Shown here piece by piece: positions 2,757 to 61,873 of a stretch of 64,000 nt of DNA. The number at the start of each line of letters is the position of its first letter. The stretch's first letter is position 1. The stretch lies in contig CAZHXI010000001.1 in the NCBI GenBank assembly GCA_964536515.1, positions 31,480 to 95,479 of the forward strand. Direction: 5' to 3'. The DNA comes from an uncultured Gammaproteobacteria bacterium (GTDB lineage Bacteria > Patescibacteriota > Patescibacteriia > CAYZDG01). The translations under genes and the position numbers were made by a program. Under the pieces are notes generated by a model that did not search any database, was not told where the DNA came from, and saw only the letters and a list, made by a program, of their open reading frames with translations.

Positions 2757-5700
2757 ATGGAGCGGCGACGATTGAGCGGCTTGATCCTGGGGACGCTGGT
2801 AGCAGCTGCACTGCTCGGCACAACCCTCATAGCTACGGTCAGCGTAGCCAGGCTGCGAGAGCGGGCGTTCGCCGCCGTTGGTTTCGGTGGAACTGGAGCA
2901 ATTCTGAAGACGATCACGCAGGGTTCCGGAGCCGCAATTGCCACGCCAGGATTCCCCGTCGTTGCAGACCCGGGTGTACGTACGCAGAACTTCTTAAGCT
3001 CGCTGGGCGATGCGATTGGCTCGGCGCTTGAGAGCAGCGGCAAGCTGCTGGTGAAGAATACGCTGTCGCGCTTCTTGGGTGAGCTGGCGCGCGGCACGGC
3101 GGAGTGGATTGCTACCGGCAGCCCGGGCCAGATGCCGCTGTTCGAGACGCAGGGTGGGTACGAGTTCATGGCGGCGACGCGTGACGCGGCTACCGCAGAG
3201 TTCCTAGATAGCCTGGGCAGCGCCTACGGCGTAGACGTGTGTAACCCCGAGCTCGGCGCCAAGCTGGTCATCCACTACAGCAGCCTGCCGTCTAGCCGTC
3301 TGGATACCCCCCGCTGCTCCCTGAAGCAAATTCAGGAGAACTGGGCTGAGCTGCTGCCGAATAACCAGGCCTTCCTGCAGCGGTTCAGCGCCGCACTGGA
3401 GCCAGACCAGAACGACCTGGGCATTGCGCTGACCCTGGAGAAGAAGCTGGTGGTAGAGCGCGAGACCAAGGCGAACGCCGCCATTCTGGAGCGGCTAGAG
3501 TCGCAGGGCCTCAAGCCCCTGAAGGACCTCGCCGGTAATATTGTGACCCCGGCGGCGGCGGTGAACGAGCAGATACGTCAGACCCTAGGCTTGAGCGCGC
3601 AGAAGGAGCTGTCGTTCATCGGCGACCCGGTGGCGGATGCCATTGGCATATTCACCAACACCCTGGGCAACAGGCTTCGAGAGAAGTGGCTGAAGCAGGG
3701 CTTCGTGAACATTGCCGACGTATTCAATCGCACCGGCAGCAGCGGCGGCCTGTTCGGCGGAGCCGGGCGCTACAGCGTGGCCGAGCCCCGGTTCGCTGCG
3801 CTGGCCGGTTTGGAGCTGGGAACCTCGGGATCAATCGACGTCGTCGGCGAGCTGTCTGCGTGCTCGGACCCCGCAGACCCGGGGTTCGGCAACCAGTGCG
3901 TGCTCGACCCCTCCTTCGCGCAGGCGGTGCAGCAGCAGCTGACGGTACGCGAGGCAATGGAGCGCGGCTTGCTACGGGGTGAGTGGGCGTTCGGCTACCT
4001 GCAGGACGGCAGCGAGCCTCGCTACGGCACCGGCTACCCGTACTCGGCAATGGTCGTCATGCGCACCAAGCGCATCGTTCCGGTCGGCTGGGAGCTGGCG
4101 GCGCAGGCAGCCAAGGCATTCGGGCAGGGCGTTACCTTGGACCACGTGCTGCACTGCTACGAAGATCCTGCGGCCGCCGGCGATGGATCGCGTCCGGTGG
4201 ACTGCCAGATTAACGGCATTAACCCGTTCTACCACCTGGTAGACCCCAACTGGCTGCTCAAGGTTCCGGCCACGTACTGCGTGCGGCGCGGCGCCAGCGC
4301 CGAGCTGCTAACCGAGGAGTACATCTGCAACCAGGACACGAACGGCGATAGCTTCGTGGACTGCGTGAACCTAGATTCGAACATCAACGGCATTGCCGCT
4401 CCGGTCGATGGGGATCCGAGCTCCAAGGATGAGTACCTCAGGGTGATCCAACGGGCCGAGTACTGCGCCGACGAGCAGAGCTGCATCGCCGAGAACGCCG
4501 ATGGTACCTGCCGCGCCTACGGCTACTGCTTCGAGGAGAAGCAGACCTTCAGCCTGGGGGACAATGCCTGCCCGTCGCAGTTCGCCTCGTGCGTGGGCGT
4601 AACCACGCCCAGCGGGCAGCAGACCGCCTACATCCAGGACAGCGTGCAGACCTGCCCCACCGGAGCCGCTGGCTGCCAGTGGTACAGCCGTCGCAAGAGC
4701 GGCGCCAACTGGAGCGTCGCCCCCACCGACCGCATCTACCTCAACTCCGAGGCGGCAACCTGCAGCCCCGACGACGCCGGCTGCCGCAAGCTGCTGCGCT
4801 TCGGCCAGGGCACCAACCTGGTACCCAACGGCGGCTTCGAACAGTACGACCGCCACCTGCCCAGCGATCCGAATGGCACAGATAACTTCTTCATCAACGG
4901 CGGCACGGCACGTGGACGGGCCTACACCAACGCGGCCGATGTGTACGAGGGGCAGGCATCGTTCCGCCTGACGCGGTCCGGTAGCATCAGCGTGCTGGCC
5001 GAAACGGGCAGCGAGGTAGCGGGCCGAACCTTTACCGCCTCGGTTGCCAGCAAGAACTGCACCGCCGGTTCGCTGTCGCTGCTGGACGGCGACGGGGGAG
5101 CCATTGGTGCTCCGGTCAACCTGCAGATTAGCGGGCCCGACACAGACAACGGCCAGTGGCACACCGCTACTATTACCGGCACCACGCAGGCGCCGGGCAC
5201 CAGCCTTACGGTGCAGGTTACCGGCCTCAATGCCTCGGTGGATTCCGACTGCCTGCTGGACTCGCTCGCCCTGACCGAGGGTTCGGCGAGGGCTACGCTG
5301 GCCTACGGCGCCGGACGTTCGGTGCACATTAGCAGCCGAGCCACGCAGTGCAGCCAGGACGACGTGGGCTGCCAGGCCTTCGTGCCGACGAGCGGCGACC
5401 CCACCGTGTTCGGCCGTATTACCGCCAACGATTACTGCCCGGCGCAGTGCGTGGGCTACCAGAACTACAGCCCCCTCATCAACACCTTCGAGGAGCGCGA
5501 GGGTGCGTCCGCCCCGGCGCCGTCTAACTTCATTCCCTCTACCGCACGCAGCTGCAGCGCCGTTGACGTGGGCTGCAGCGAGTTCACCAGCCTGGCAGAG
5601 GTGCCGGAAGGCGGCGAGCGGGTAGCCTACTTCAGCCAGGTGCAGCAGTGCGTGCCCGAGGCGACGCCGAGCGTGGGTACCTACTACACCTGGGAGGGCA

Positions 5701-8700
5701 GCGATACCGCCGGCTACCAGCTGCGCGTCTGGCAGCTGCTGCGTACCAATATCTCGGGGCCCCTGGCGCCGTGCACCAACCTCAGCTTAGACCCATCCAT
5801 TCAGCCGCCGGTCTGCTTGGATACGGCAGAAAACCGGGCGACCTGCGACCTGAATGCCGGTAACCCCGACTGCCGCGAGGTATTCGACTCCAATGCCACC
5901 AGCCACGGCGTGCTGTGGAGCCGCGTGGTGCAGGCGACGAACGACTGCCAGCAGTACCGTCGCACCGGCACCGACTTCGTGTACAACGTTTCGCCCCGAC
6001 TGGCGCGGCGCTGCCCGGCTGCGGCCAACGGCTGCCGCCAGTACCGCGGCGCCACCGGCGGCAACACCCGTACCGTTCTTCTGGCGGACTTCGAGACGTC
6101 ATCCGCCGCTGGCTGGGGCGGCACGCGCGTGGCGCTGACAACCGAGGCTCTGCAGGTCGGCGGGCACTCGCTGCTCGCTCTGGGCGCCAGCGGCAGCGTT
6201 ACGTTGCGCCGCACCGAGCCGCTAGCCATGCGTCCGGGCCACCAGTACATGCTCACCGTGTGGGTGAAGGGCTCAGACCGAGACATTCCGGCCGGCAACG
6301 TAACCCTACGCGGGGGCCTGCGCCGCCTGCTGGGCGCCCTGGGTGCAACCCCGGCGTCTGCCCAGCCCGGGCCTGCCGAGAACCTGGTATTCAACGCCGG
6401 GCCTACGCCCATCGGCGGCGAGTGGCAGAGGCTACAGATCGGGCCGGTTACGCCCACCACGCAGGCGAGCACCATGACGTTCGATATCACCGTGGCTATC
6501 GGCGGCCTTCGCAGCGCCTACTTCGACAACATCCAGCTGAAGGAGGTAACCAGCGATACGTTCGTGGTGCAGAACTCGTGGGAGACGCCGCAGGCCTGCG
6601 ATAACCCACCCGGCCTACCCAACGGCACCGACTCTAACCCCCGCACCGAGCCCGGCGCCATGGTGGGCTGCAGCGCCTACCGCGTGGCTGGCCGCCAGGT
6701 AACGCTGAGGTCTTTCAATCGGCTGTGCGCCGAGCGCAACGTGGGCTGCCAGGCGTTCATGGATACGGCGAACTCTGCCTCGCCGTTCGCCCAGCGTTTC
6801 AACTCAACCTGCAGCCTGGGCGCCCCCGTAGCCACGCCCACCGTCTGTAGCTCGGACGGGTACCAGCGCTGCGTGGTGGGAGCCGGCGAGGCGAGCTGCC
6901 GCTACACCCAGACCTCTGACTACGACCCCAGCTCTGCCGCGGAGCCGCTGGTAGCCGACGAAGACCAGGTGCCGGTGCTCGGCGACCGGGTTACCTACCT
7001 GGTAGACGACCCTGCGGCGTACTGCAGCGCCGAGGTAGCCGGCTGCACCCAGCTGGGCTTGCCCCGCATCAACAAGCAGGCGTGGTCTGGCAGCGGCGCA
7101 GCCCCGGCCAACGGCATCGTCAGCTGGCAGGACGTGTACAAGGTGGCGAACCCAGACCAGTTCAGCCGCAGCCTGTGCAGCGTCGGCCAGCTGTGGTGCG
7201 CGGCGCACCGCGTCTCGGGCGGCGGCACGCTTACCTTCCGCGACCCGCAGGGCAGCCTGGCGGGGGAGAGCCGTACCTGCGAGTACCGCACGGGCGTGCA
7301 GATTGGCAGCCAGCTGGTTACGGGCTGGTTCCGTACCGGCACCGACGACGGCTGCCGCGCCACGTCTAACTACAGCCTGCCGCTCAACGGCGGCCCGGGC
7401 TACGACCGCTTCGTGGGCATCTGCCCGGCGCAGTACAGCGGCTGCACCAACTACCGTAACCCGCAGCCCAGCGCCACCGGCGGCGAGCGCGACAACTACT
7501 TCCTGCGCAGCAGCGTAGATAGCAGCTCGTGCAACGGCCTGGTAGATGTGGCCGGCGGCTGCATGCTGTTCCGCGACCCAGCCCAGCCGGCGCTGTACAG
7601 CTCACAGTACAGCTACCCGCCCTACCGGCTGCCGGGCCAGGCGCCGGTAGCAACCTCGACGCTAGATAGCAACGTGGTCCTAAAGGTGCGGCGCGACCGC
7701 AGCTGCAGCCAGTGGTACAGCTGCGGCAGCAGCGTGGCCGTGCCCGGCAGCCCCACGGGGCAGCGGGTGTGCACGTCGCTCACCAGCTGCACGCGGCTGA
7801 ACCCCGCCACCAACCAGTGCGACAACCCCGGCGGCGGATCGTTCCCCGTCGGCAGCGCCGGCTTCCCCAACGAGTTCACCTTCGCCAGCCCGGATGACAG
7901 CACGCGGTGGCGTAACCTCTCCGGCTACACCGTACCCGGCATCCAGTTCACCGGCGGCCCGGGCCTGGTGAGCCGCGGCTTCACCCCCTACAGCAACATG
8001 GAGCAGATTGGGCTCTCCGCTACGGTCTCGAACGGCGGGTTCGACGACGCGGCAGACAGCCTAGCCTCCACCGACGGCGTGGGCTGGCATAGCTGCGACT
8101 CCGGCGCCCCGGCGGTACCGGCAGCGCAGGCTTGCAGCTACGTGGTTTCAGCCAACAGGGTTCGCGAGGGACGCGCGGCGCTGCGCTTCAGCTCTACGGT
8201 CGGCGCCGTAACCACCCTGCGGCACGGCGTCGTGGCCGTGGCTCCGAACTCTACGTACGCCGTCAGCGTGCAGCTGAACACCGTAGACCTGCTCGCCGGC
8301 GACGTGGCGCTCGAGGTGCTGGATGGCGGCGGCACGGTACAGCTGCGTCTGCAGCAGGGCTCGGGCCAGGGCTGGCAGACGCTGCTGGGGCAGTTCACCG
8401 CTACCGGCAGCGTTACCCTACGCCTGGTCGCCTCGGCTGATGCCAGCGGCAGCGCCTACGTAGACGACGTGAAGATCGAGCCGGTGCTGCAGGTGAACGG
8501 CGAGCCGCGCTTCGTGGGCCAGCAGTGCCGCGTCTACCCGCGCGGCGACGCACCGTCGTGCCGTTACACCCAGGCAGACGGCGAGTACCGGGGCATCACG
8601 GGCTACTGCCTGCAGCCCGACCCCCGCGACCCCAGCCGCTGCATCCAGTGGTGGCCGGTGGACGTGGTAGCCGGCCAGTCGTTCGACGTCTTCGGCGAGA

Positions 8701-10415
8701 CCATTAGCCTGAGCGGCCGTACGCCCCTGCGCTACTGCACCGAGGCTGCGGGAAACGCCTACGACGACAACCGCGATGGCACGAAAGAGTACTGGCGCGA
8801 TGCGGGGGTAGACGCGAATATTGATGGCGGCGGCACCGGCGGGGAGATAAGGGCTGCGTGCAACCCAGACCCCCTGGCGGCGTCGCCCTCTAGTACAGAT
8901 GATGGCTGCACGCTGGCTGAGATGAGCTCCGGGTGGGCGGTGGAGGAGCTTTCGGGTATGCACCTCTGGAACGTTCACTGGAGCCAGGTCGCCCGCATTG
9001 TGGCAGACGGCGACTACAACGCCTGCAATAAGCACTACTCCGTAATGCCAGAGCTACGTGAGTACACGTTCGAGATGCACGAGCCAACTAGGTCCGTTAC
9101 GCGTTTCGGCTTCTGGACAGACTGGCAGAACGACAGCGAGGGTGAGACCTGGGCTTTCTTCGGCGTCGACCGCGGCAGCGGACTCATCAACTACTTCATC
9201 GGCTACGTCAACGATACGGCGGGCAGCGGCGAGGACTGCACCGTGGACTTCAAGATCGTCACCAAGGAGCAGTGCTCGGTCGTCGCCGAGGTTCGGGCAG
9301 ACGATACGCACACGGCGTGGTTCGACCGTTTCAACGGCGGCACCTACTCCGACGCTAGCTTGGTCCCCGCCAACGATGCCGCTCCCTACGGCGCCCTGCC
9401 GGCTAACGCCGCTGCAGACCTGATGGGTGCCACCTGCGATCCCGATATCCTGGCAGCTTCGGACTCGCTGAGTATCGATGAGGGCTGCGCGTTGCCCATC
9501 GGCAAGTTCGCCCTGCGGGCCAACGGCTCGCAGGCCGAGCGCGGCGGCACGCCGCTGGCCTGTCCCGTGGGCGGGTGCGCCGTGCCGCAGTGCACCCTCG
9601 ACCGAGCCAACAGCTGCGGCACCGCTGGCCAGACTACCGCCTGCTTCGATGCACTGGCTACGCCGGGAATCGGCTTCTGCTCCGGCAACCAGGTGCCCAG
9701 CGCAGCGAACGAGGGAACCAGGGTCGAGGGCGCCGTGCGCCTATCGCAGATGTTCGCCCGCAGCTACTACACCTGGACCCTAGACCCCGCCACCCACCGC
9801 TACCGCATCAACGACTGCCTTAACGACGATACGATTCAGGTAGCCATTGCCGCATCCCCCACCGGGGTAGACTCCGGCAGCGGTTGCTGGGACAGGCGCA
9901 AGCTGCTATCCACGCCAGATCCTGCCCCCACCACGCTCCGCCCGCGGGTACCCGAGATTAGCATCAACGGCAATTCCAGCGACACGCCCGAGGTGGCAGC
10001 CAGCGTGGGCGATACTGTGGAGCTGCGCTTCAGCTCGCTGCTGAACGCCGACCGCCTGCCGCTGCGCTTCATCCTGGTTGACTGGGGCGACGGCGAGCGG
10101 ACCGTTACCTCGCGGCTGAGCATCAACCACCAGCCGTCCGTGGCTAGCGGCCACCTGTTCACGCACACCTACTCTACCCGGCCGACCACGACCTGTGGGT
10201 CCGACTTCTGCGCCACCATTCGGGTGCAGATCGAGGACAACTGGGGCTTCTGCAACGGCGCACTCCCTGCGACGAGCTACAATATCAACAATGGCAACAT
10301 GAGCCTCAACCAGAGTGGCGCCGGCTGCTTCATTGGGAACGCCACCGATAGCCTCCGCTGGACCAGGGCAACCACTACCCTCCGCTTCTCCACCGCGGTA
10401 GAGGAAGACGTCTAG
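2757..10415 (+). CDS. Giant (2552 aa) Cys-rich cell-surface protein with CBM-like beta-sandwich modules and a C-terminal PKD-like domain
   Basis: N-terminal TM/signal (LILGTLVAAALLGTTLIATVSVA). More than 10 repeats of C-x(8-15)-[DN]-x-x-G-C-[QRST]-x-[FYL], e.g. DDAGCRKLL, DDVGCQAFVP, VDVGCSEFTS, RNVGCQAFMD. Three NGGFE/NGGFD-type carbohydrate-binding-like modules. VDWGDGE PKD-like motif near the C-terminus. Confidence 0.7.
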   Translation: MERRRLSGLILGTLVAAALLGTTLIATVSVARLRERAFAAVGFGGTGAILKTITQGSGAAIATPGFPVVADPGVRTQNFLSSLGDAIGSALESSGKLLVKNTLSRFLGELARGTAEWIATGSPGQMPLFETQGGYEFMAATRDAATAEFLDSLGSAYGVDVCNPELGAKLVIHYSSLPSSRLDTPRCSLKQIQENWAELLPNNQAFLQRFSAALEPDQNDLGIALTLEKKLVVERETKANAAILERLESQGLKPLKDLAGNIVTPAAAVNEQIRQTLGLSAQKELSFIGDPVADAIGIFTNTLGNRLREKWLKQGFVNIADVFNRTGSSGGLFGGAGRYSVAEPRFAALAGLELGTSGSIDVVGELSACSDPADPGFGNQCVLDPSFAQAVQQQLTVREAMERGLLRGEWAFGYLQDGSEPRYGTGYPYSAMVVMRTKRIVPVGWELAAQAAKAFGQGVTLDHVLHCYEDPAAAGDGSRPVDCQINGINPFYHLVDPNWLLKVPATYCVRRGASAELLTEEYICNQDTNGDSFVDCVNLDSNINGIAAPVDGDPSSKDEYLRVIQRAEYCADEQSCIAENADGTCRAYGYCFEEKQTFSLGDNACPSQFASCVGVTTPSGQQTAYIQDSVQTCPTGAAGCQWYSRRKSGANWSVAPTDRIYLNSEAATCSPDDAGCRKLLRFGQGTNLVPNGGFEQYDRHLPSDPNGTDNFFINGGTARGRAYTNAADVYEGQASFRLTRSGSISVLAETGSEVAGRTFTASVASKNCTAGSLSLLDGDGGAIGAPVNLQISGPDTDNGQWHTATITGTTQAPGTSLTVQVTGLNASVDSDCLLDSLALTEGSARATLAYGAGRSVHISSRATQCSQDDVGCQAFVPTSGDPTVFGRITANDYCPAQCVGYQNYSPLINTFEEREGASAPAPSNFIPSTARSCSAVDVGCSEFTSLAEVPEGGERVAYFSQVQQCVPEATPSVGTYYTWEGSDTAGYQLRVWQLLRTNISGPLAPCTNLSLDPSIQPPVCLDTAENRATCDLNAGNPDCREVFDSNATSHGVLWSRVVQATNDCQQYRRTGTDFVYNVSPRLARRCPAAANGCRQYRGATGGNTRTVLLADFETSSAAGWGGTRVALTTEALQVGGHSLLALGASGSVTLRRTEPLAMRPGHQYMLTVWVKGSDRDIPAGNVTLRGGLRRLLGALGATPASAQPGPAENLVFNAGPTPIGGEWQRLQIGPVTPTTQASTMTFDITVAIGGLRSAYFDNIQLKEVTSDTFVVQNSWETPQACDNPPGLPNGTDSNPRTEPGAMVGCSAYRVAGRQVTLRSFNRLCAERNVGCQAFMDTANSASPFAQRFNSTCSLGAPVATPTVCSSDGYQRCVVGAGEASCRYTQTSDYDPSSAAEPLVADEDQVPVLGDRVTYLVDDPAAYCSAEVAGCTQLGLPRINKQAWSGSGAAPANGIVSWQDVYKVANPDQFSRSLCSVGQLWCAAHRVSGGGTLTFRDPQGSLAGESRTCEYRTGVQIGSQLVTGWFRTGTDDGCRATSNYSLPLNGGPGYDRFVGICPAQYSGCTNYRNPQPSATGGERDNYFLRSSVDSSSCNGLVDVAGGCMLFRDPAQPALYSSQYSYPPYRLPGQAPVATSTLDSNVVLKVRRDRSCSQWYSCGSSVAVPGSPTGQRVCTSLTSCTRLNPATNQCDNPGGGSFPVGSAGFPNEFTFASPDDSTRWRNLSGYTVPGIQFTGGPGLVSRGFTPYSNMEQIGLSATVSNGGFDDAADSLASTDGVGWHSCDSGAPAVPAAQACSYVVSANRVREGRAALRFSSTVGAVTTLRHGVVAVAPNSTYAVSVQLNTVDLLAGDVALEVLDGGGTVQLRLQQGSGQGWQTLLGQFTATGSVTLRLVASADASGSAYVDDVKIEPVLQVNGEPRFVGQQCRVYPRGDAPSCRYTQADGEYRGITGYCLQPDPRDPSRCIQWWPVDVVAGQSFDVFGETISLSGRTPLRYCTEAAGNAYDDNRDGTKEYWRDAGVDANIDGGGTGGEIRAACNPDPLAASPSSTDDGCTLAEMSSGWAVEELSGMHLWNVHWSQVARIVADGDYNACNKHYSVMPELREYTFEMHEPTRSVTRFGFWTDWQNDSEGETWAFFGVDRGSGLINYFIGYVNDTAGSGEDCTVDFKIVTKEQCSVVAEVRADDTHTAWFDRFNGGTYSDASLVPANDAAPYGALPANAAADLMGATCDPDILAASDSLSIDEGCALPIGKFALRANGSQAERGGTPLACPVGGCAVPQCTLDRANSCGTAGQTTACFDALATPGIGFCSGNQVPSAANEGTRVEGAVRLSQMFARSYYTWTLDPATHRYRINDCLNDDTIQVAIAASPTGVDSGSGCWDRRKLLSTPDPAPTTLRPRVPEISINGNSSDTPEVAASVGDTVELRFSSLLNADRLPLRFILVDWGDGERTVTSRLSINHQPSVASGHLFTHTYSTRPTTTCGSDFCATIRVQIEDNWGFCNGALPATSYNINNGNMSLNQSGAGCFIGNATDSLRWTRATTTLRFSTAVEEDV

Positions 10416-46854: not shown

Positions 46855-46900
46855 CCGTAACCTCCCCCGTTCCAACGGGGGAGTTAGCTATACCCTAGTA

Positions 46901-46929
46901 TTGACGAAATATGATAAATGTGCTAATAT
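46901..46929 (+). promoter_or_regulatory. Strong sigma70-like promoter in a very AT-rich island (TTGACG-17-TAATAT)
   Basis: -35 at 46901-46906, -10 at 46924-46929; AAAGGAG SD before ATG 46978. Confidence 0.55.
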
Positions 46930-46977
46930 ATATTTATTAGGTAAACCTTGAAAACCAGTTCCAAAAAGGAGAAAAGA

Positions 46978-47646
46978 ATGGAAGCTTGGATTTTTGCAAA
47001 CAAACTGACGGTAGGTTTCTGGTCGGCCATCGTGGCCAGTGGATTCTTAGCCCTGTGCTTCGTGACCGTGCTCGTGACTCGTGCCATCAGAGCCAGATCG
47101 TTCAGGCGCGCGACGCTGGCGAAGCTCAGCAGCGTAGCAGCAGAGCTCGGCCAGCTCGCTGGCCAGTTGCAGTCGAACGACTTCGTCCGCAAGCAGGCGC
47201 TGGATCGTATCGTTGACTTCTTCGATACGGTCAGCCGATGGCACGACCGAGATGCCGAGCTGGCGGCGATCATTGCCGACCTGACGGCGTTGAACAGGCG
47301 GAATGATTACGACGGCGTGCTGCGAGACCTGGCCACGCTGCGGGCTCACCTCAACAATGCCGGCCGCTCGCCATACGGCTTGAACAGGACTAAGCCGGGA
47401 GAGCGGGTTACAGCTGACAGCGTCTACCTGGGTGATATCTTCGGCCTGTGGACCAAGACGGTTGCGTACTGGAAGACGACGGCCAGCGAGCCGAAGGACC
47501 AGTGGCGCGGCGGGATGTGGGCTGGGCACAACGGCGTGGCGGGCAAGAACTGCTACGACGTCGTCTCCACTCAGGCCGCAGATTTCATGGCCGGACACAT
47601 CGGACCGATCGTCGAGCTGGCGGGCAAGGTTCAGCAAGCGCGTTGA
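46978..47646 (+). CDS. Hypothetical single-pass membrane protein (accessory)
   Basis: N-terminal TM WIFANKLTVGFWSAIVASGFLALCFVTVLV then a ~180 aa soluble domain. Start at ATG 46978 with SD. Confidence 0.5.
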   Translation: MEAWIFANKLTVGFWSAIVASGFLALCFVTVLVTRAIRARSFRRATLAKLSSVAAELGQLAGQLQSNDFVRKQALDRIVDFFDTVSRWHDRDAELAAIIADLTALNRRNDYDGVLRDLATLRAHLNNAGRSPYGLNRTKPGERVTADSVYLGDIFGLWTKTVAYWKTTASEPKDQWRGGMWAGHNGVAGKNCYDVVSTQAADFMAGHIGPIVELAGKVQQAR

Positions 47647-48486: not shown

Positions 48487-48557
48487 GTTGATTCTCGGTT
48501 AGTGAATTCGTGGGAGCAGTATACAGGAAAGGGAGGCGAGGAAGTAGCGGAAATTGG

Positions 48558-48580
48558 TATCATTGACACTAATTAGCATA
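48558..48580 (+). promoter_or_regulatory. Promoter-like motif TTGGTATCATTGACAC (shares TGGTATCATTGAC with the 56861 motif)
   Basis: 13-nt identity with 56866-56878. Lies in the AT-rich divergent region between dsbA-like(-) and 48640(+). Confidence 0.4.
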
Positions 48581-48639
48581 TATGATATAAAAGTTACGTA
48601 ATTGAACCAGAACGACCAAATTAGAGAGTAGGAGGAGCA

Positions 48640-49233
48640 ATGAGCTCAAGTAAAAGACGGCTCGGCGGCTGGGGAATGTGCGGTATTATTGGCCTCGCGG
48701 TAGTGGCGCTGATTGCGCTCACGAACCTCAACCCAGGCCTGTGGCAGGCGATGAAGGGAGCGGGAATTCGGACGAATTCGGCGATGGCGTACATCGCCAT
48801 TTCACAGCCCCAGGCTGTCCACGCGTTGCTCGAGGGTGAGCTGGAAGAAGTCGCCTCCGACGATCCCGGTGTGGACCTGTGGTCTCCTGATCGATTCAGA
48901 GAAGCGCGCAGCATCAACGAGAGCTGCTGGACGAGGTCTAACTACGGCCTGCTACGCATCGATCGCCGCGGTGGCCGCAGTTACCTGGAGCTCTCCCCGA
49001 ACGGCAACCACACGGTATGGGAGACGTACGGGGAGCTGACGGCGGCAACGGAGCAGTCCGTAGCTGCAGCGGGCAAGCCCAATTTGGAGACGTTCCTCTC
49101 CGGCGGGCGGGTAGCCTGGGGGACGCTCAGCGTCCACCTGGCTGGTAGGAACCCCGACGACGCGACGGCGATCGCGGCAATGTTCATTCCGTACGGGACG
49201 CCCGAGGATTTCGTTCTCACCCCCGACGAGTAG
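48640..49233 (+). CDS. Hypothetical membrane-anchored protein
   Basis: AGGAGG SD; N-terminal hydrophobic anchor MCGIIGLAVVALIALT. Confidence 0.45.
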   Translation: MSSSKRRLGGWGMCGIIGLAVVALIALTNLNPGLWQAMKGAGIRTNSAMAYIAISQPQAVHALLEGELEEVASDDPGVDLWSPDRFREARSINESCWTRSNYGLLRIDRRGGRSYLELSPNGNHTVWETYGELTAATEQSVAAAGKPNLETFLSGGRVAWGTLSVHLAGRNPDDATAIAAMFIPYGTPEDFVLTPDE

Positions 49234-54869: not shown

Positions 54870-55144
54870 CGTGAAGCCAGTGAGGGATGGAGAGTTAGAT
54901 GTTATGATTGACTTATCATAGTAAATATGCTACTATAGAATTATAGTATATACTTTGAAAAATTTGATTTTTCGATAATGTCACCCATAGCTTTAGCGAA
55001 GGGTGGTAGCCCTAGCCACGAGGTCAGGGAGGGGTCATCCTCTCGCTGCGTCCTGGCTACGGCTACCTAGGTTGGAGCCCACTGGCGAGTAACAGACGTG
55101 TCCCCAACTGTGGGGACGGGTCAAAAAACAAGAAGGAACGTGTC
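54870..55144 (+). promoter_or_regulatory. Very AT-rich promoter island followed by a ~190 nt GC-rich hairpin-rich leader
   Basis: AT-rich 54890-54990 (…gctactatagaattatagtatatactttgaaaaatttgatttttcgataatg…); hairpin GTCCCCA-ACT-GTGGGGAC near 55095-55115. Confidence 0.4.
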
Positions 55145-55813
55145 ATGAGAAATGACGAGTTAGTTCTAGGAGCTACGCAGGCGTACGAGCTCCAGGCGAG
55201 TTTGCGCAAAGCCGGGTACACGGACGGAGAGCTCAAGGCCCTATCTGGCACCCCGTTTCTGTCGAAGGTGCTCACGGTCATTCGTGGGCAGGCGACCATC
55301 CAGGCTCTGCCGCCCGCCGAGCAGGCGCCCGTCACGCCGTTCGAGCCCAAGGTCTTCAAGACCATCAAGCTGGGCGAACACAAGTCCCACAAGGACTACC
55401 GCAAGGCCATGGAGAAGGCGGGCTTCCGCATCGGCGACTACGCGGTCCAGATTCTGGAGAAGGTCACGGTGGCGAGCGAGCCCACCGAGCTGGACCTGGT
55501 GGTCGTGACGGTCGGCGAGCTCGGATTCAAGGACGGCGCGCGGCGAGACGCCATCTACGAGAAGGCCCTGAGCCTCGGGCTGCAGCTCTGCCCGAACGAA
55601 GTCGGCCCGGCACTGCGCCTGGCGCACCCGGACCAACCCATGAACGAGTGGCTGCGCGTCGGCATGGAGCCCCTCACGGACTCGGGCGGCGGCCTCTACG
55701 TCTTCTGCGTGGACCACGACGGCAACGGGCGCTGGCTCGACAGCTACTACGGCGAGCCCGACCTCGTTTGGAACGCTGTCAACCGCTGGGTGTTCGTCCA
55801 GCCCCGCAAGTAA
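55145..55813 (+). CDS. Hypothetical protein (accessory)
   Basis: 222 aa; no recognisable motifs. Confidence 0.45.
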   Translation: MRNDELVLGATQAYELQASLRKAGYTDGELKALSGTPFLSKVLTVIRGQATIQALPPAEQAPVTPFEPKVFKTIKLGEHKSHKDYRKAMEKAGFRIGDYAVQILEKVTVASEPTELDLVVVTVGELGFKDGARRDAIYEKALSLGLQLCPNEVGPALRLAHPDQPMNEWLRVGMEPLTDSGGGLYVFCVDHDGNGRWLDSYYGEPDLVWNAVNRWVFVQPRK

Positions 55814-56062
55814 GCACTTTGACCCTCGGCTCGGCACTCGGTCCCTTGGGCCTTGGCCCTTCCCCCCGCGCAACGCGCGGTCGGTTCCCAACAACAGAAG
55901 CCCCCGCCATCCGTGGCGGGGGTTCTTTGTTTGTCGCAGCGTGTCACCACCTGGGGTAATTTTGGCGCCATCCTTGACCTTCCCACCTCCGCATGGCAGC
56001 ATAGAGCCGTCCCGAATGGGACGATATTCATCCTATAATTCTAGAAAAGGAGGTGACCACCC

Positions 56063-56758: not shown

Positions 56759-56781
56759 ATCAATCCGAGATTGGAATTGTA

Positions 56782-56811
56782 CGTAGAGACGAGGCGCGCC
56801 TCGTCTCTACG
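56782..56811. repeat. Palindromic repeat family copy 5 (CGTAGAGACGAGGCG|CGCCTCGTCTCTACG)
   Basis: 30-nt perfect palindrome downstream of yqeY; acts as terminator and/or insulator before the giant adhesin promoter. Confidence 0.7.
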
Positions 56812-56860
56812 GCGTTTGGCATCGCCACGCACCGCCGCCGTGCGTAGCCCTGCGGAGGGT

Positions 56861-56881
56861 ATAGGTGGTATCATTGACGTC
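56861..56881 (+). promoter_or_regulatory. Extended -10 promoter AGGTGGTATCATTGACGTC, leaderless start of the giant adhesin gene
   Basis: TGgTATCAT at 56866-56874; ATGATG at 56882 is 7 nt downstream. Confidence 0.5.
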
Positions 56882-59800
56882 ATGATGCCTTCGTTGCGCT
56901 CCTGGCTAACAGTTCGAACGGGCATTGCCGTGGCCAGCGCGGCTGCGCTGGCATTGGGTACCTGGCTCGTCGGCAGCCAAATTGGCGTGCAGGCAAACCC
57001 ATCGGTCAATGGGGTCTGCGATGGCGCAGACCGCTGCCTTGAGCCGACCGAAGTCTCAACATTCTTGGGGCGGGCGATAGAGTCGGACCCAGACCAGGCT
57101 GTGGGCAAGCACGAGTGGGACTTCACGGGCACCGGCACCTACGGCAACGTCGTAACCTGCGTCGGCGCCGCCTGCCGGCAGAGCTGCAACGACCTGGCCC
57201 ACCCGCTGTGGCAGGACTGCTCTGCTACCGACTACAGCTACAGCAGCGAGGCTTTCTTCGCCTCGACGAATGAGCGGCAGGTTACGGTAGGAATGCGGGG
57301 CGTCGATACCGAGGGCGCAGCTGGAGTGGCCCAGACCCGCAAGGTCGGCGTGGCCATTGCCTACGTCGGCCCCGACCGAGGCAGCAGCAACCTAGCCGTC
57401 AGCGGCGTGGGCGCCGGCAGCTTCACCGTAACCTGGCGAGACGTTACCGATGTTCCCGGCAGCGCCTACACCCTGCACGTGGATAACCTTGACGACGGCA
57501 CGGGGGACACGATACCGGTTACCAACGACAAGGCTATCGGCGACGCCTACAGCGTGGCGTACACAGCTGATCCATCCACCGACTACCTCGTCTGGGTGGT
57601 GGTTTACTACCCCACGCCGACGGGCTCTATCGTGCGGCAGAACCTGCCCCCATCAGACCCCATCGTCGGCGTGCCCGTTACCACGCCGGCCAACGGTCTG
57701 CCGACGCTGACTATCCAGCGTCAGCCAGGAAACGTGCCGCCGGCGGCTGCGGCTCCGCACTACCAGCTGCTGCGGCAGGCCGGCAACGTGCTCACCCTCA
57801 ACATAACCGTGGCCGACCCAGACGGCGACCAGCTGGCCGAGCTACGCATCGACGGCCTAGCTTCGTTGCCCGGCGCAACGTTCAGCGGCTTCAGCACGCC
57901 GACCCCCGGGCCGGTGACCAGGACGATGACGTGGAACTTGAACATGGCGCCCCCGCCGAGCGGGGACTACTCCATTAACGTGGTCGCCCGCGACGTGGTC
58001 GGCGGCACGGCCAGCCGCGCCGTGGTCATTCGGCTTAACTCCAACCCCGATGCGCCGACCAGCCTGCAGGTGAACACCAACGATGCTACCTCGGGCCTGG
58101 CATCTGGCGACCCCAGCCCGGTGGCCCAGGTTATAGACGATAACCTGGCTGACCAGAACCTGAAGTTTACCTACCGCCACGCCGACCCAGACGGCGACGC
58201 CGCCGCCAACTACCGTATCCAGGTAGATACGGACTCTGCCTTCGCCAGCCCCCAGACGTGGGACTCGGGCAGCCAGAGCTTGGCGGTGGCCAACGGCACC
58301 CGCTCCGCTAACGTTACCTACACCGGGCCGGCGCTAGCCTATAGCACGGACTACTGGTGGCGGGTGCAGGTCGGCGACGGCAACGGCAACCTCAGCTCCT
58401 ACGGCGCCGGACGCTTCCGGCTGCGCCCCACCAACTACGCGCCCGTGCTCGACCCCATCGGCAACCGGTCTGTAGACGTGGGCGCCACCCTGACGTTCAC
58501 CATGACCGCTTTCGATCAAGATGTAGCCGACGGCATCCAGACCCTGAGCTACCTGGCCCAGGGCGGGCTGCCGTCCCCGCGCATGGCGCTCAACCCGCTC
58601 ACCGGGGCTTTCACCTTCACGCCTAGCTCGGCTGACCTGCCGCCGGCTAGCCCCTACACCGTTACGCTCTGCGCCCGCGATAGCTTCACCCCGACCCCGG
58701 CGCAGGACTGCGAGACGATTACCATCACGGTCAACCTCAACCTGGCCGCCCCGACCGGACTGAGCGTGAGCTTCACCAGCCCCACGGCCGGCACCGCGAC
58801 GTGGACCCACAGCGCCCCGGGCGAGGACGGCTTCCAGCTCGACCAGACCGCGCCGGTGAGCACCCCGAACATCCTCTCGGTAGCGGCGAACGTTACCAGC
58901 GGGAGCTTCACCTTCAACCAGTGCGGCAGCACCTCGACCGTCGGGTTCCAGGTGCGCGCCTTCGTAGATACCGGCGTGAGGCAGTTCAGCGCCGCCGCGA
59001 GTGGCTCGGCTAGCCGCCCCGGCTTCGCCACTCCCACCGGCCTCTCCGTCGCCGCGACCGGCAACACCACCGCTCGGCTATCGTGGACCCCGGGTACCAC
59101 CGGTCAGACCGGCTACGCCGTGTACAACGGTGGCACGCGGCTCGCCGACGCTCCGGCTGCGGCGACCAGCTACGACTTCTCCGGCCTCACCCCAGCTAGT
59201 AGCTACACCTTCCGCGTGCGGCCGCTGGTTGGCATCACCGGCTGCCTGCCGGGCAACGAGGCGCTGGGCGCCACCGCCAGCGTGGCCTGGACGCAGCCCA
59301 ACCCCGCCCTCACCGTTACGCCGTCCAGCCTCGCCTTCGGCAACGTGGTCAAGGATGCAAACTCGGCTACCCAGACCGTTACCGTTCGCAATACCGGCGG
59401 GGTGGTGCTGACGGGCATCACGGCGGCTATCGCGGGTGCAGATGCCGGCCAGTTCAGCCTGCTCAATACGCCGCCGGCCAGCCTGGCGCTCAACGCAACT
59501 TGGGATGCCCAGGTCCAGTTCCGTCCCACGTCGTACGGCGCCAAGTCTGCCCAGCTGCAGATTGCTGCGCCAAGCTTCGGCCTATCATCCAACGTAGCGC
59601 TGACGGGAACCGGGGTGCCGACCGCTCCGGTCATTACATCGGCGAGCTGGGACGCGAACGAGCCGAGCAGGTACAGCCTCGCCTGGACGTGGGGTCCCGG
59701 CGACCCGGATGACTTCTCGATACAGATGCCGCTGGGAACAGAGCAGTTCCGGCTGACCCTGGGCAACCAACGGGCGCGCAACAACCAGCTGCTGACGTCC

Positions 59801-61873
59801 AGCTACTGCTACTCCGCTACCGGCACGACCCACACCATCAACCTGCTGGCTTTCGACGGAGGCTACTCGGTACCGGCTACGGCGAACCTCGGCACGAGGC
59901 CCGGCTGGGAGGCCATGGGTGGGCCAACTTCGACGGTATGGCTATCGGATACGTCGGCTCGTCTGACATGGGCTGACCCCGCGCCCGCCCGTAGCCGCTA
60001 CGAGGTGCGGGTTTGGACTACCGCGCCTTCTCCCGTAGCGATCTTCAGCGCCACCACGACCGACGACGCCACGAGTATAGATCTCACCGGACTGGTGGCA
60101 GGTACCAACTACAACGTAACCGTGCGGCCGTTACGGTTGCCCATTGATTTGCCCGGGTGCTCCGCGCCGATTTACGGGAGCAGGGTTAGCTTCGCCTACC
60201 GTCAGCCGATTGTGGATATAGAAGTCTACGTGCAGGATACACCGGCAAGTTCGCCGCAGATATTTGAACTCGATGGGGGCGGAGTATTGCTGGGCGACGC
60301 TCTCTCGTTCCCATTACGTATCAAGAATAACGGCGACCCGATCGTCATCGGTGGATTCAGCTCAGAGATTACCGGCGGCGGAGTTCCGGGTGGCATTAGC
60401 CTCTCGACCAGCTGGCCAGTTACCGACTGCGGGGGTGGGGTGTTCGGCTTCTGTGGCGGAGCTACTTGGAACACCAACGTTCAGCTCGGCGTTTCTGGGA
60501 TGACTGGACCAGAGCTCGAGGTACGCGTTCAACTTGAGACTGGGGTGTACGGGCGGGTACTAGATTTCCCCATTCGGATGGTCGCACTTAGTAGCGACCC
60601 GGCAACCGATCAGGAAATATTTGTTACCGCAGCTGGGCATATCGGCGACTTCGGAAATAGCCAGGCACAGGCAGAGCAGGTCTCAAATGATTTCTGCATG
60701 GCGGACACCCGACGGAACCCCCTCAAGAGCTACAGGGCGTTGCTCTGGTACAGCAATAGCCCGTTGCCGGGAGTTCTGAGCCCGGGGACTCTGTATTTCA
60801 ATCGGTCGGGTGAGTTTGTATTCGGTACACGGCCGTCTGACGTTACCCCGCCCTATACCGCCCACCGACCCATATGGGGTGTGAGCCCGAGCGTCTGGTC
60901 TGGGCGAGGCATTGGAGGCGAAGCCTATAACTGTAGCGAATGGACCGGCAATGGTATGGCTACCGGTGCGACAGTCAACCCCAGCAGTTTGGGTCAGTGG
61001 AGCTTGGGCAGCGGCGCCAGTGTATGCTTTACAAATTCGAAGCCAATTTACTGCGTTTCCTACCCGACTACCAGCGTAACCGTGAGTCCCCTTACCCATG
61101 ATTTTGGATTCGTTCAGTTCAGTTCACCTGCGGCCACGCAGCAGGTGGTTATAACGAATACCGGATCGTCAAATGTTACGCTGACGAGCGTCAGCATTGT
61201 CGGCGGAGGGGGGGATTTCTCCCTCGTATCGCCCGTAGCGCTCGGCAGCTTCTCTTCGGGCCAAACGAGGACAGCTAATGTGCAGTACGATCCTGCGGGC
61301 ACACCTGGTTCGAATACGGCAACTCTAAGAATCGTGACTACGGAGGCCGGCACCATCGACGTTGCTCTGTCGGGTCACGGAATTCAGACGTTGAAGCGAA
61401 TTGCATTGGTGAATCCCCCCAACAATGGAGGTTTCCTTGCAGTCGGCGTCGGTACCCCCGAGCAGCGAGCTGATGCAATTTGTCAGGCGGATCCGTTGAT
61501 CGCGAGTTTGGGTGGAACTTGGAAGGCCCTGCTGAAGGCGAGCGACGCTTTCGTGGGAACTGCGTTGCACGGCGGCGTTACCTATGCCTCAGCTACCAAT
61601 CCGGGGTCGGTGCTATTCACGGCTGCCACGGATAACGATGTGAGCCAGCCTATGATATCCCCGTTAACTGGGAGCACGACTTACGTCTGGACTGGCGACT
61701 ACGATTTCGTAGGTGACTGCAATGCTTGGACCAGCAACAACGCTGGTAGCGGTGGAGCTGGGCGAGCCTGGACAGCTGCCTGGACACCCGCCGATCAGTT
61801 GCGTTGGTTTTCAGGAGGACTAGGGATAGCCTGCTACGGCTCAGTTCAAAAAATATACTGCGTGGAGCAGTAG
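56882..61873 (+). CDS. Giant (~1660 aa) surface adhesin-like protein with FN3, ASH/PapD-like (choice-of-anchor-type) Ig domains and an internally duplicated Cys-containing C-terminal module
   Basis: Signal-anchor MMPSLRSWLTVRTGIAVASAAALALGTWLVG. FN3 (LSWTPGTTGQTGYAVYNGG…YTFRVRPL). ASH-like (…LAFGNVVKDANSATQTVTVRNTGGVVLTGI… and …FGFVQFSSPAATQQVVITNTGSSNVTLTSV…). Duplicated ~130 aa modules ending …KPIYCVSYP and …QKIYCVEQ. The track start at 56771 lies inside the palindromic repeat. Confidence 0.65.
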   Translation: MMPSLRSWLTVRTGIAVASAAALALGTWLVGSQIGVQANPSVNGVCDGADRCLEPTEVSTFLGRAIESDPDQAVGKHEWDFTGTGTYGNVVTCVGAACRQSCNDLAHPLWQDCSATDYSYSSEAFFASTNERQVTVGMRGVDTEGAAGVAQTRKVGVAIAYVGPDRGSSNLAVSGVGAGSFTVTWRDVTDVPGSAYTLHVDNLDDGTGDTIPVTNDKAIGDAYSVAYTADPSTDYLVWVVVYYPTPTGSIVRQNLPPSDPIVGVPVTTPANGLPTLTIQRQPGNVPPAAAAPHYQLLRQAGNVLTLNITVADPDGDQLAELRIDGLASLPGATFSGFSTPTPGPVTRTMTWNLNMAPPPSGDYSINVVARDVVGGTASRAVVIRLNSNPDAPTSLQVNTNDATSGLASGDPSPVAQVIDDNLADQNLKFTYRHADPDGDAAANYRIQVDTDSAFASPQTWDSGSQSLAVANGTRSANVTYTGPALAYSTDYWWRVQVGDGNGNLSSYGAGRFRLRPTNYAPVLDPIGNRSVDVGATLTFTMTAFDQDVADGIQTLSYLAQGGLPSPRMALNPLTGAFTFTPSSADLPPASPYTVTLCARDSFTPTPAQDCETITITVNLNLAAPTGLSVSFTSPTAGTATWTHSAPGEDGFQLDQTAPVSTPNILSVAANVTSGSFTFNQCGSTSTVGFQVRAFVDTGVRQFSAAASGSASRPGFATPTGLSVAATGNTTARLSWTPGTTGQTGYAVYNGGTRLADAPAAATSYDFSGLTPASSYTFRVRPLVGITGCLPGNEALGATASVAWTQPNPALTVTPSSLAFGNVVKDANSATQTVTVRNTGGVVLTGITAAIAGADAGQFSLLNTPPASLALNATWDAQVQFRPTSYGAKSAQLQIAAPSFGLSSNVALTGTGVPTAPVITSASWDANEPSRYSLAWTWGPGDPDDFSIQMPLGTEQFRLTLGNQRARNNQLLTSSYCYSATGTTHTINLLAFDGGYSVPATANLGTRPGWEAMGGPTSTVWLSDTSARLTWADPAPARSRYEVRVWTTAPSPVAIFSATTTDDATSIDLTGLVAGTNYNVTVRPLRLPIDLPGCSAPIYGSRVSFAYRQPIVDIEVYVQDTPASSPQIFELDGGGVLLGDALSFPLRIKNNGDPIVIGGFSSEITGGGVPGGISLSTSWPVTDCGGGVFGFCGGATWNTNVQLGVSGMTGPELEVRVQLETGVYGRVLDFPIRMVALSSDPATDQEIFVTAAGHIGDFGNSQAQAEQVSNDFCMADTRRNPLKSYRALLWYSNSPLPGVLSPGTLYFNRSGEFVFGTRPSDVTPPYTAHRPIWGVSPSVWSGRGIGGEAYNCSEWTGNGMATGATVNPSSLGQWSLGSGASVCFTNSKPIYCVSYPTTSVTVSPLTHDFGFVQFSSPAATQQVVITNTGSSNVTLTSVSIVGGGGDFSLVSPVALGSFSSGQTRTANVQYDPAGTPGSNTATLRIVTTEAGTIDVALSGHGIQTLKRIALVNPPNNGGFLAVGVGTPEQRADAICQADPLIASLGGTWKALLKASDAFVGTALHGGVTYASATNPGSVLFTAATDNDVSQPMISPLTGSTTYVWTGDYDFVGDCNAWTSNNAGSGGAGRAWTAAWTPADQLRWFSGGLGIACYGSVQKIYCVEQ

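Follow-up and report, generated by a model that had tools for sequence, protein, structure and literature searches.

A Conserved Leader RNA Motif Ahead of a Probable Stand-Alone Diversity-Generating Retroelement Variable-Protein Gene in a High-GC Member of the Patescibacteria

To our knowledge, prokaryotes have no dedicated system for protein hypermutation other than the diversity-generating retroelements (DGRs), which are found with particular frequency in the Patescibacteria, a group of ultra-small bacteria that depend on hosts. Two described target proteins, Mtd of the Bordetella phage BPP-1 and TvpA of Treponema denticola, are C-type-lectin DGR variable proteins. Here, we analyze a 64,000-nt stretch of contig CAZHXI010000001.1 (the window in what follows, numbered from its first letter), and within it a 222-aa open reading frame (ORF) at 55145–55813 on the + strand, running from ATG to TAA, together with the leader that precedes it. 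The encoded protein differs from these two in being small, in the ~200-aa range, and in having no detectable sequence similarity to Mtd or TvpA, and, unlike in the systems of these two, there is no template repeat (TR), reverse transcriptase (RT) or Avd within the 64 kb. On homology, the family of this ORF is that of DGR variable proteins, and the comparison of loci shows its leader to be a lineage-specific version of a widespread Patescibacteria leader RNA motif, one that is not in Rfam and was not found described in the literature searched. What appears to be new is that DGR target genes carry a dedicated conserved leader RNA; the kind of gene is known and the promoter is ordinary.

The DGR target determinants are, as Guo and co-workers reportedly found in 2011, the initiation of mutagenic homing (IMH) sequence and a GC-rich hairpin or cruciform at the 3' end of the variable repeat (VR). 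The central hairpin of the present leader (P1) is likewise a conserved hairpin tied to DGR targets, and the window also keeps a candidate palindrome downstream (55848–55859). P1, however, is part of the 5' untranslated region (UTR), ~600 nt ahead of the VR, and it is conserved in sequence rather than in shape alone. The protein-binding leaders of ribosomal-protein genes and of pnp and rnc are alike in having a conserved mismatch-containing helix between promoter and Shine–Dalgarno sequence, on the sense strand and with modest predicted occlusion. The window leader differs from these in resembling no Rfam leader, in preceding genes that do not encode RNA-binding proteins, and in that its binding factor is putative.

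The Patescibacteria-restricted DGRs make up DGR clade 2 (Roux et al. 2021, PMC8144416). The relatives of the present locus resemble this clade in host phylum and in the cassette of target gene, TR, Avd and RT, while the window copy differs in having no cassette. The terms "UTR" and "upstream of" are absent from the main text of that paper, in which an upstream leader is thus apparently not described. The RT-1 to RT-19 motifs near bacterial RT genes are candidate structured RNAs, some of them possibly DGR-linked (Weinberg et al. 2017, PMC5737381). These motifs adjoin RT genes, whereas P1 stands ahead of the target gene and is retained where no RT is present.

In the window, the RNA from 54945 to 55150 folds with −83.1 kcal/mol, compared to −61.4 ± 4.5 kcal/mol for 200 dinucleotide shuffles, none of which is as good (z = −4.8). 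The leader is ~195 nt long, and its fold is dominated by P1, a 63-nt hairpin at 55005–55067 (+) with the arms GGUAGCCCUAGCCA and UGGCUACGGCUACC and with an apex that is 9 nt longer than in the closest relative (locus L082). The initial annotation, made from the letters of the window, had reported a hairpin-rich GC leader ahead of a 222-aa gene. The gene and the structure are both confirmed, the richness in GC is not, since the segment 54990–55144 has 59% GC, slightly under the genome average.

Across loci, the consensus arms of P1 are GUCAUAGCCA and UGGCUAUGAC, which form ~23 bp with a conserved 1×1 mismatch, two conserved G·U wobbles and a variable apex; written in full, the consensus is 5'-(G)UAGUCAUAGCCA-A-AAG-[variable stem and loop]-UUU-C-UGGCUAUGACUA(C). 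The window P1 has arms of this type with the unpaired C ahead of UGG, and it is found where the motif is found in other loci, namely on the sense strand, with a sigma70-type promoter upstream, and 30–160 nt from the start of a ~200-aa ORF (77 nt from the end of P1 to the ATG in the present case).

A search with nhmmer, using the window leader as query, returned L082 as well as the distant loci L050 and L027, in each case just 5' of the homologous gene, and a covariance model (R1) was built from these four leaders. R1 gives 79.9 bits for the window P1 and, on the strand of the gene, matches in ~33 of 82 related loci. The matches stand immediately upstream of the homologous gene in 35 of 37 cases, with the start codon at most ~85 nt from the motif end; of the two others, one is without a homologue downstream and one without a start that could be called. 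A second model (R2), built from 32 low-GC sequences with the window and L082 left out and run with filters off, has the window segment 54999–55073 (+) as its top and only significant match (E = 0.0036, the next being at E = 1.6).

The exact pattern GTCATAGCCA-N18–48-TGGCTATGAC is present in at least 120 loci of metagenome contigs and has 0 matches in viral contigs, and the fetched loci hold 151 unique hairpins. A Shine–Dalgarno sequence and an ORF follow the hairpin in 95 of the 121 loci that have enough downstream sequence, at a median distance of 73 nt and with a median ORF length of 200 aa. Upstream of the hairpin, a near-consensus promoter is found at 15–130 nt in 102 of 145 loci, the median distance from the end of the −10 element to the hairpin being 42 nt; in the window, the −10 element ends 68 nt ahead of P1. 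Judged by its asymmetry, the hairpin is on the same strand as the homologue that follows it in all 48 assignable cases.

The covariation was evaluated on a gap-free alignment of 33 sequences, with 500 shuffles and slid partners as controls. The paired cells amount to 93.7%, compared to 83.4% in the shuffled alignments and at most 49% with slid partners, and none of the 500 shuffles reaches the observed scores. Double-sided changes are seen in 14 of the 23 P1 pairs, so that the covariation with homologous leaders, which the initial annotation had proposed to look for, is strong. The conserved wobbles are a G·U at 24–43 (26 of 33 sequences) and a U·G at 29–38 (29 of 33), and in 71 of 85 gene-validated cases the fold is more stable for the sense RNA than for the antisense RNA, with a mean difference of −3.4 kcal/mol. 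These two features argue that the structure belongs to the sense-strand transcript. Near-invariance over very distant lineages is seen in 13 of the 23 pairs, with a 10-bp invariant box. The leader segments 3' of the hairpin come in several unrelated versions, among which a compact, pseudoknot-like module of the form CCC…CCUC-GGGNA-GAGG is present in many relatives.

Scanning the whole window with Rfam 15 at gathering thresholds returned tRNAs only, and the segment 54800–55250 gave only chance matches, far under gathering, at E ≤ 10; the Rfam scan proposed along with the covariation analysis thus finds no family matching the leader region. The loci L027, L082, L050 and L083 have no match at E ≤ 0.1. 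The RT-1 to RT-19 motifs are expected within Rfam, and no model of this kind matches the window or these four cassette loci. Full-text and term searches of the DGR literature found no upstream leader element, with the main DGR paper on these phyla (Paul et al. 2017) outside the searches and an earlier mention therefore possible.

The assignment of the ORF rests on its relatives. In L082, the homologous protein (P0002) has 57% amino acid identity to the window protein over the full length (75–86% at the nucleotide level), and the gene stands beside the same signal-peptidase and hisS neighbors. Past the gene lie, in this order, a terminator, a conserved noncoding stretch of ~220 nt, a TR of 140 nt that differs from the VR at TR adenines, and the genes for Avd (bAvd) and the RT. 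In L083, bAvd and RVT_1 are found downstream of the homologue. The adenine-biased TR of L082 and the Avd and RT behind the homologues of both loci identify the ORF family as one of DGR variable proteins. Altogether, ~28 hairpin-bearing cassettes have a common spacing, the RT starting ~870–930 nt past the stop codon, and the TR mismatches in cassettes fall almost exclusively at TR adenines (14 of 14, 19 of 19, 22 of 22 and 24 of 24). A TR and an RT also accompany many further homologues. The part of the window gene aligned with the VR and TR of L082 is at 55676–55807 (+), that is, the C-terminal ~44 codons (residues ~178–221).

A word-indexed search returned 115 homologues, mostly from Patescibacteria, and an exhaustive profile search 6,836 representatives of 50%-identity clusters at E ≤ 1e-3, of which 2,157 at E ≤ 1e-30. 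The gene had been called an orphan, a description that does not hold for a member of so huge a DGR variable-protein family. Neither the ORF nor the family profile has a match among Pfam, PHROGs and the PDB sequences; the family is thus very large, yet without a Pfam-A model, a PHROG or a solved relative detectable by sequence.

The hairpin is not confined to this family. For roughly half of the loci from metagenomes, the hairpin is followed by an ORF without detectable homology to the window protein; these ORFs encode other small proteins, and a Pfam search with ten of them gave nothing meaningful. Sequence-unrelated families with an adenine-biased TR and an RT of their own stand behind the hairpin in eight loci (L091, L124, L125, L136, L159, L168, L181 and L197). 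Since these unrelated target families all lie behind the hairpin, it is a shared feature of Patescibacteria DGR targets and not of one protein family.

No cassette accompanies the gene in the window. A blastn search of 55600–55830 against the 64 kb (word size 7, E ≤ 10) found no repeat longer than 31 nt that could be a TR, and tblastn searches of the 64 kb with the RT and Avd proteins of L082 and L083 (two of each kind) gave chance matches only (E ≥ 0.79). The homology to L082 stops at 55860. Stand-alone units of leader and gene are present in at least 18 other loci, for which 2–12 kb of downstream sequence contains no detected TR or RT. The window gene would then either be diversified from a distance, by a DGR located at another place in the genome, or have remained as a frozen copy once its cassette was lost. 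A flank rich in CTTGG and CTCGG at 55814–55863 (+) contains the palindrome GGGCCTTGGCCC at 55848–55859, 35 nt past the stop codon, of which the L082 counterpart, GGACCTTGGTCC, represents a compensatory change, and CTTGG/CTTTGG (TTGG-rich) repeats are found in the 50–70 nt past the stop codon in every cassette examined. The palindrome is a candidate DGR target-recognition hairpin kept in a copy that has no local retroelement.

The AlphaFold2 model of the protein has a predicted local distance difference test (pLDDT) score of 86, and of more than 95 for residues 65–222. Its structural neighbors are consistently C-type-lectin or formylglycine-generating enzyme (FGE) folds, including TvpA and Mtd, with weak scores. 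The best explanation of the model is a small protein with a putative C-type-lectin-like fold, its core being residues ~65–222, of the kind that DGRs diversify. No signal peptide is recognized at the N-terminus by eye, a predictor not having been run. Otherwise unrelated variable proteins (L094, L099, L119, L124, L162 and L185) have N-terminal modules in common, of the form 'GQIEAxxNKLGGxEGxxRFLxGELVV' or 'GQxHxLxxxLExKGYTxxDLTxLGQ', and residues 1–45 of the window protein (55145–55280) contain a module of the second type (…ELQASLRKAGYTDGELKALSG). Such a common module may serve for docking or sorting.

Upstream of the leader, a sigma70-type promoter is predicted at 54908–54936 (+), with a −35 element TTGACT (54908–54913), a 17-nt spacer and an extended −10 element TGc-TACTAT (54928–54936). 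TTGACT-17-TACTAT, which has a TG at −15/−14, agrees with the consensus at 9 of 12 positions, and the region contains four promoter-like sites where 0.3 are expected; an alternative overlapping promoter, TTATCA-17-TAGAAT, ends at 54941 (+). A promoter of like architecture is aligned in L082, and the relatives, too, have an AU-rich leader start after the −10 element. These elements lie within the AT-rich island that had been noted at 54890–54990. The island itself is well founded, 54890–54985 having 25% GC against 64.7% for the whole window (the genome figure had been put at ~67%, which is too high for the window); in terms of 60-nt windows with GC ≤ 0.35 it extends over 54877–55009, with its core at 54890–54985. 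Only six comparable islands exist in the 64 kb, every one of them intergenic. The present one is, as far as can be predicted, a strong sigma70-type promoter together with the AU-rich 5' end of the transcript, and functional constraint may be what keeps promoter and transcript start AT-rich within a GC-rich genome.

The pattern of AT island, long leader and orphan gene had also been said to recur at 46880 and 48490. The AT-rich promoter does recur, with TTGACG-17-TGcTAATAT at 46901 and TTGACA-17-TGaTATAAA at 48564, but the long leader does not, the leaders there being ~40 nt and unstructured. What the three sites share is this genome's promoter type only. The two islands in question (46873–47008 and 48533–48641) place near-identical extended −10 promoters ahead of small predicted membrane proteins (46978–47646 and 48640–49233) that have no Pfam match.

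The identification of the parts, namely a promoter, a member of the conserved leader motif and a stand-alone DGR variable-protein gene, is probably correct. As to what the leader does, we propose, as a tentative and possible reading, that P1 is a factor-binding cis-regulatory element of the 5' UTR. The transcript would open with a ~195-nt structured 5' UTR having P1 as its invariant core, and P1 would be where a conserved trans-acting factor, most likely a protein, docks; when bound, this factor would set how well the downstream mRNA is translated or how stable it is. The state of the factor would be relayed to ribosome access by the variable 3' modules and by the hairpin beside the Shine–Dalgarno sequence. 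Macromolecular recognition is favored here over a metabolite pocket because the invariance lies inside a regular helix and the flanking modules are interchangeable. A near-invariant hairpin in front of hundreds of targets from unrelated families would point to one conserved factor acting on all of them. Two weak hints in favor are the slightly lower predicted accessibility of the Shine–Dalgarno sequence across loci than with shuffled leaders and, in some loci, a downstream element capable of pairing with the P1 3' arm.

A number of points weigh against this proposal or limit it. We infer the transcription start at ~54943–54950, and the RNA itself, from the sequence. Compared to the consensus box, the window P1 has one compensatory change (U-A to C-G) and also one A-U to C·C mismatch, and its R2 score is only 21.3 bits. 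R1 sees the hairpin in only ~40% of the loci of the family. The minimum free energy fold of the window leaves the Shine–Dalgarno sequence unpaired, and across loci its occlusion is modest, the unpaired probability being 0.34 compared to 0.44 with shuffled leaders (p = 4e-4). Sequestration of the Shine–Dalgarno sequence was accordingly rejected as a general mechanism, being a modest tendency that is not visible in the fold of the window. Finally, the search for a cassette covered the 64 kb of the window, in a contig that has a further 94 kb of sequence.

Several other explanations of the leader have been considered. P1 could be a processing site for RNase III or another double-strand RNase that matures or destabilizes the mRNA, in which case no dedicated factor would be needed. 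RNase III has a minimal substrate of about two helical turns, and it processes the pnp and rnc leaders of E. coli. The P1 helix, with 13 + 10 bp around the 1×1 mismatch, is about two turns long and thus has just this length, and it is on the sense strand in the 5' UTR. However, RNase III sites are usually kept in shape and not in a 10-bp invariant sequence, whereas more than half of the P1 pairs (13 of 23) hardly vary over very distant lineages, and we consider this explanation unlikely. A small-molecule riboswitch, with P1 and the 3' module as the aptamer, is quite improbable, although a riboswitch had been suggested in the initial annotation as one form of leader-mediated control. In its favor are the length, conservation and multi-helix architecture of the leader, the pseudoknot-like 3' module of many relatives, and a possible alternative pairing of the P1 3' arm with a downstream GGUGGUC element, for which 24 perfect 7-mers are found compared to 10.3 in cross-pair controls. 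The enrichment is limited to a subset of loci and the pairing is not visible in the fold of the window, such that it is no more than a lead. The absence of an Rfam match even at E ≤ 10 argues against a riboswitch, as does the conservation, which is concentrated in a regular helix and not in junctions; the segments able to form a pocket are the variable ones and exist in several unrelated versions. Moreover, the downstream genes encode ligand-binding, surface-type proteins and not metabolic or transport proteins. What does stand of that suggestion is leader-mediated control in the broader sense, with which the conserved, covarying sense-strand structure in well over 100 related loci is consistent.

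P1 could also belong to the DGR machinery itself, as an upstream RNA or single-stranded DNA hairpin that marks the retrohoming target or limits cDNA integration. The hairpin does precede several unrelated families with adenine-biased TRs, and the invariance of its sequence suggests one conserved machine. Against such a role, P1 lies ~600 nt upstream of the VR, its distance is fixed to the promoter and the Shine–Dalgarno sequence and not to the VR, and it persists in many units that have no local DGR. Cognate pairs of leader and TR-upstream noncoding RNA have no better duplex energies than non-cognate ones, and a co-evolving pairing of these two RNAs was therefore rejected as well. We regard this role as unlikely, and the same holds for the related idea that Patescibacterial DGRs have in P1 an additional recognition element on the upstream side, an RNA or non-template-strand DNA hairpin of invariant sequence to which the RT–Avd particle or a partner protein binds. 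Were the latter true, P1 would tag the genes that carry it as DGR clients, couple their expression to diversification and let stand-alone copies diversify in trans. A role as double-stranded DNA, whether in recombination, as a site for it, or as the operator to which a dimeric regulator binds, would agree with the near-perfect palindrome of the P1 arms. The 26-nt spacer, however, is self-complementary and covarying, which is needless for binding to duplex DNA, and the conserved G·U pairs are strand-specific. Nor is translation of an upstream ORF a good explanation of the leader. The window has such an ORF of 30 codons (ATG…TAG, 54977–55069, +) that spans the whole of P1, and L082 has one of 27 codons in the same frame, the 9-nt difference in apical length being frame-preserving. 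It has no Shine–Dalgarno sequence, however, and the low-GC leaders have no in-frame start codon ahead of the hairpin, while their 3' arm brings a TGA into that frame. Both of these variants are very improbable. Least credible of all is an AT-rich, horizontally acquired islet with its cargo silenced by nucleoid-associated proteins, as had been suggested at the outset. The local drop in GC to 25% would agree with it, as would the DGR cassette that is present in one relative and absent here. However, the low-GC stretch is ~100 nt, coincides with the consensus promoter and is confined to it and to the first ~40 nt of the transcript. The compositional anomaly that would be expected of an acquired gene is not there either, the ORF having a GC of 0.652 and a GC at third codon positions (GC3) of 0.883, compared to a GC3 of 0.85–0.91 for the neighbors hisS, der, lytR and signal peptidase. 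In addition, the hisS synteny is shared with L082, and both the family and the leader are native to Patescibacteria.

The preferred reading of P1 as a factor-binding element would make the motif a handle on the regulation of DGR targets in organisms that are mostly uncultured. The motif is also a cheap finder for variable-protein genes that lie far from any RT and are missed by standard DGR finders. For the window, the locus is now annotated with promoter, leader motif, variable-protein gene and terminator.

The remaining elements of the leader are arranged around P1 as follows. Near the 5' end, ACTTTGAAAAA (54952–54962, +) appears from a by-eye alignment to be the counterpart of a conserved 5'-proximal element, AGTTCTTTGA(a/t)A, which in L082 reads ACCTTGAAAAC. 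A small AU hairpin, GAAAAA-TTTGA-TTTTTC (54957–54973, +), is predicted by the fold and is specific to the high-GC lineage; its L082 counterpart is GAAAAC-CTAG-GTTTTC, the closing pair changing from A-U to C-G. Next is the hairpin P0 (ACCC…GGGU, 54983–55004, +), the loop of which holds TTAGCGAA (54993–55000), the counterpart of a conserved ACTTGCGA element. Compared to the low-GC relatives, the window leader thus has a longer apex of P1 and two additional small hairpins upstream of it. Downstream of P1, the 3' module GGTTGGAGCCCACTGGCG (55070–55087, +) is the window's form of the recurrent GGUGGUCCUCUGGC element, the first half of which could, in some of the loci, pair with the P1 3' arm at its base. 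The hairpin P3 (55095–55122, +) includes GTCCCCA-ACTG-TGGGGAC at 55100–55117, a stem that had been singled out in the initial annotation and is real; L082, L050 and L027 have a hairpin of different sequence in this position. The Shine–Dalgarno sequence AAGGA (55133–55137, +) is 7 nt ahead of the ATG and aligns with GAAAGGA in the relatives. Past the gene, an intrinsic terminator is predicted at 55899–55934 (+), where an 11-bp stem is followed by CTTTGTTTGT, and L082 has a terminator at the equivalent place. The best explanation of this layout is a single, monocistronic transcription unit of ~0.98 kb.

The ~220-nt conserved noncoding stretch between the target terminator and the TR deserves separate mention. 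It is present in L027 (2140–2373), L082 (3060–3282) and ~20 further loci, where it reads GGTAGTAGGTGAATATGCGG…CGCTACCGAATCCAGTATCCATAC…CTTCAAAAAATGAAGATACTTGGTAT…CAGCCCCGAGAGTATTCAAGGGGCAGTGG, and it has no Rfam match at E ≤ 0.1. The stretch probably makes up the structured portion of the TR RNA, and an AT-rich, TATAAT-like sequence past the target terminator may be its own promoter. The cassette of L050 (2140–2513) is truncated: it keeps the TR-upstream noncoding stretch, but in place of TR, Avd and RT there is unrelated sequence in which a different gene begins.

The flanks of the locus are housekeeping genes, with LytR, Der, Pth, tRNA-Val, signal peptidase and HisRS upstream and S21 (rpsU) and YqeY downstream, rpsU being the next gene after the terminator of the ORF. 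The locus is present in identical form in SRR12487045, which is from the source sample. The named homologues of Der are all from Patescibacteria, at only 40–45% identity, from which the host appears to be a divergent, high-GC member of this group. Patescibacteria mostly have low to moderate GC, and the ~65% GC of this host is unusual among them. The window also contains two giant ORFs, at 2757–10415 (2,552 aa) and at 56771–61873 (1,700 aa), the latter of which begins directly after yqeY.

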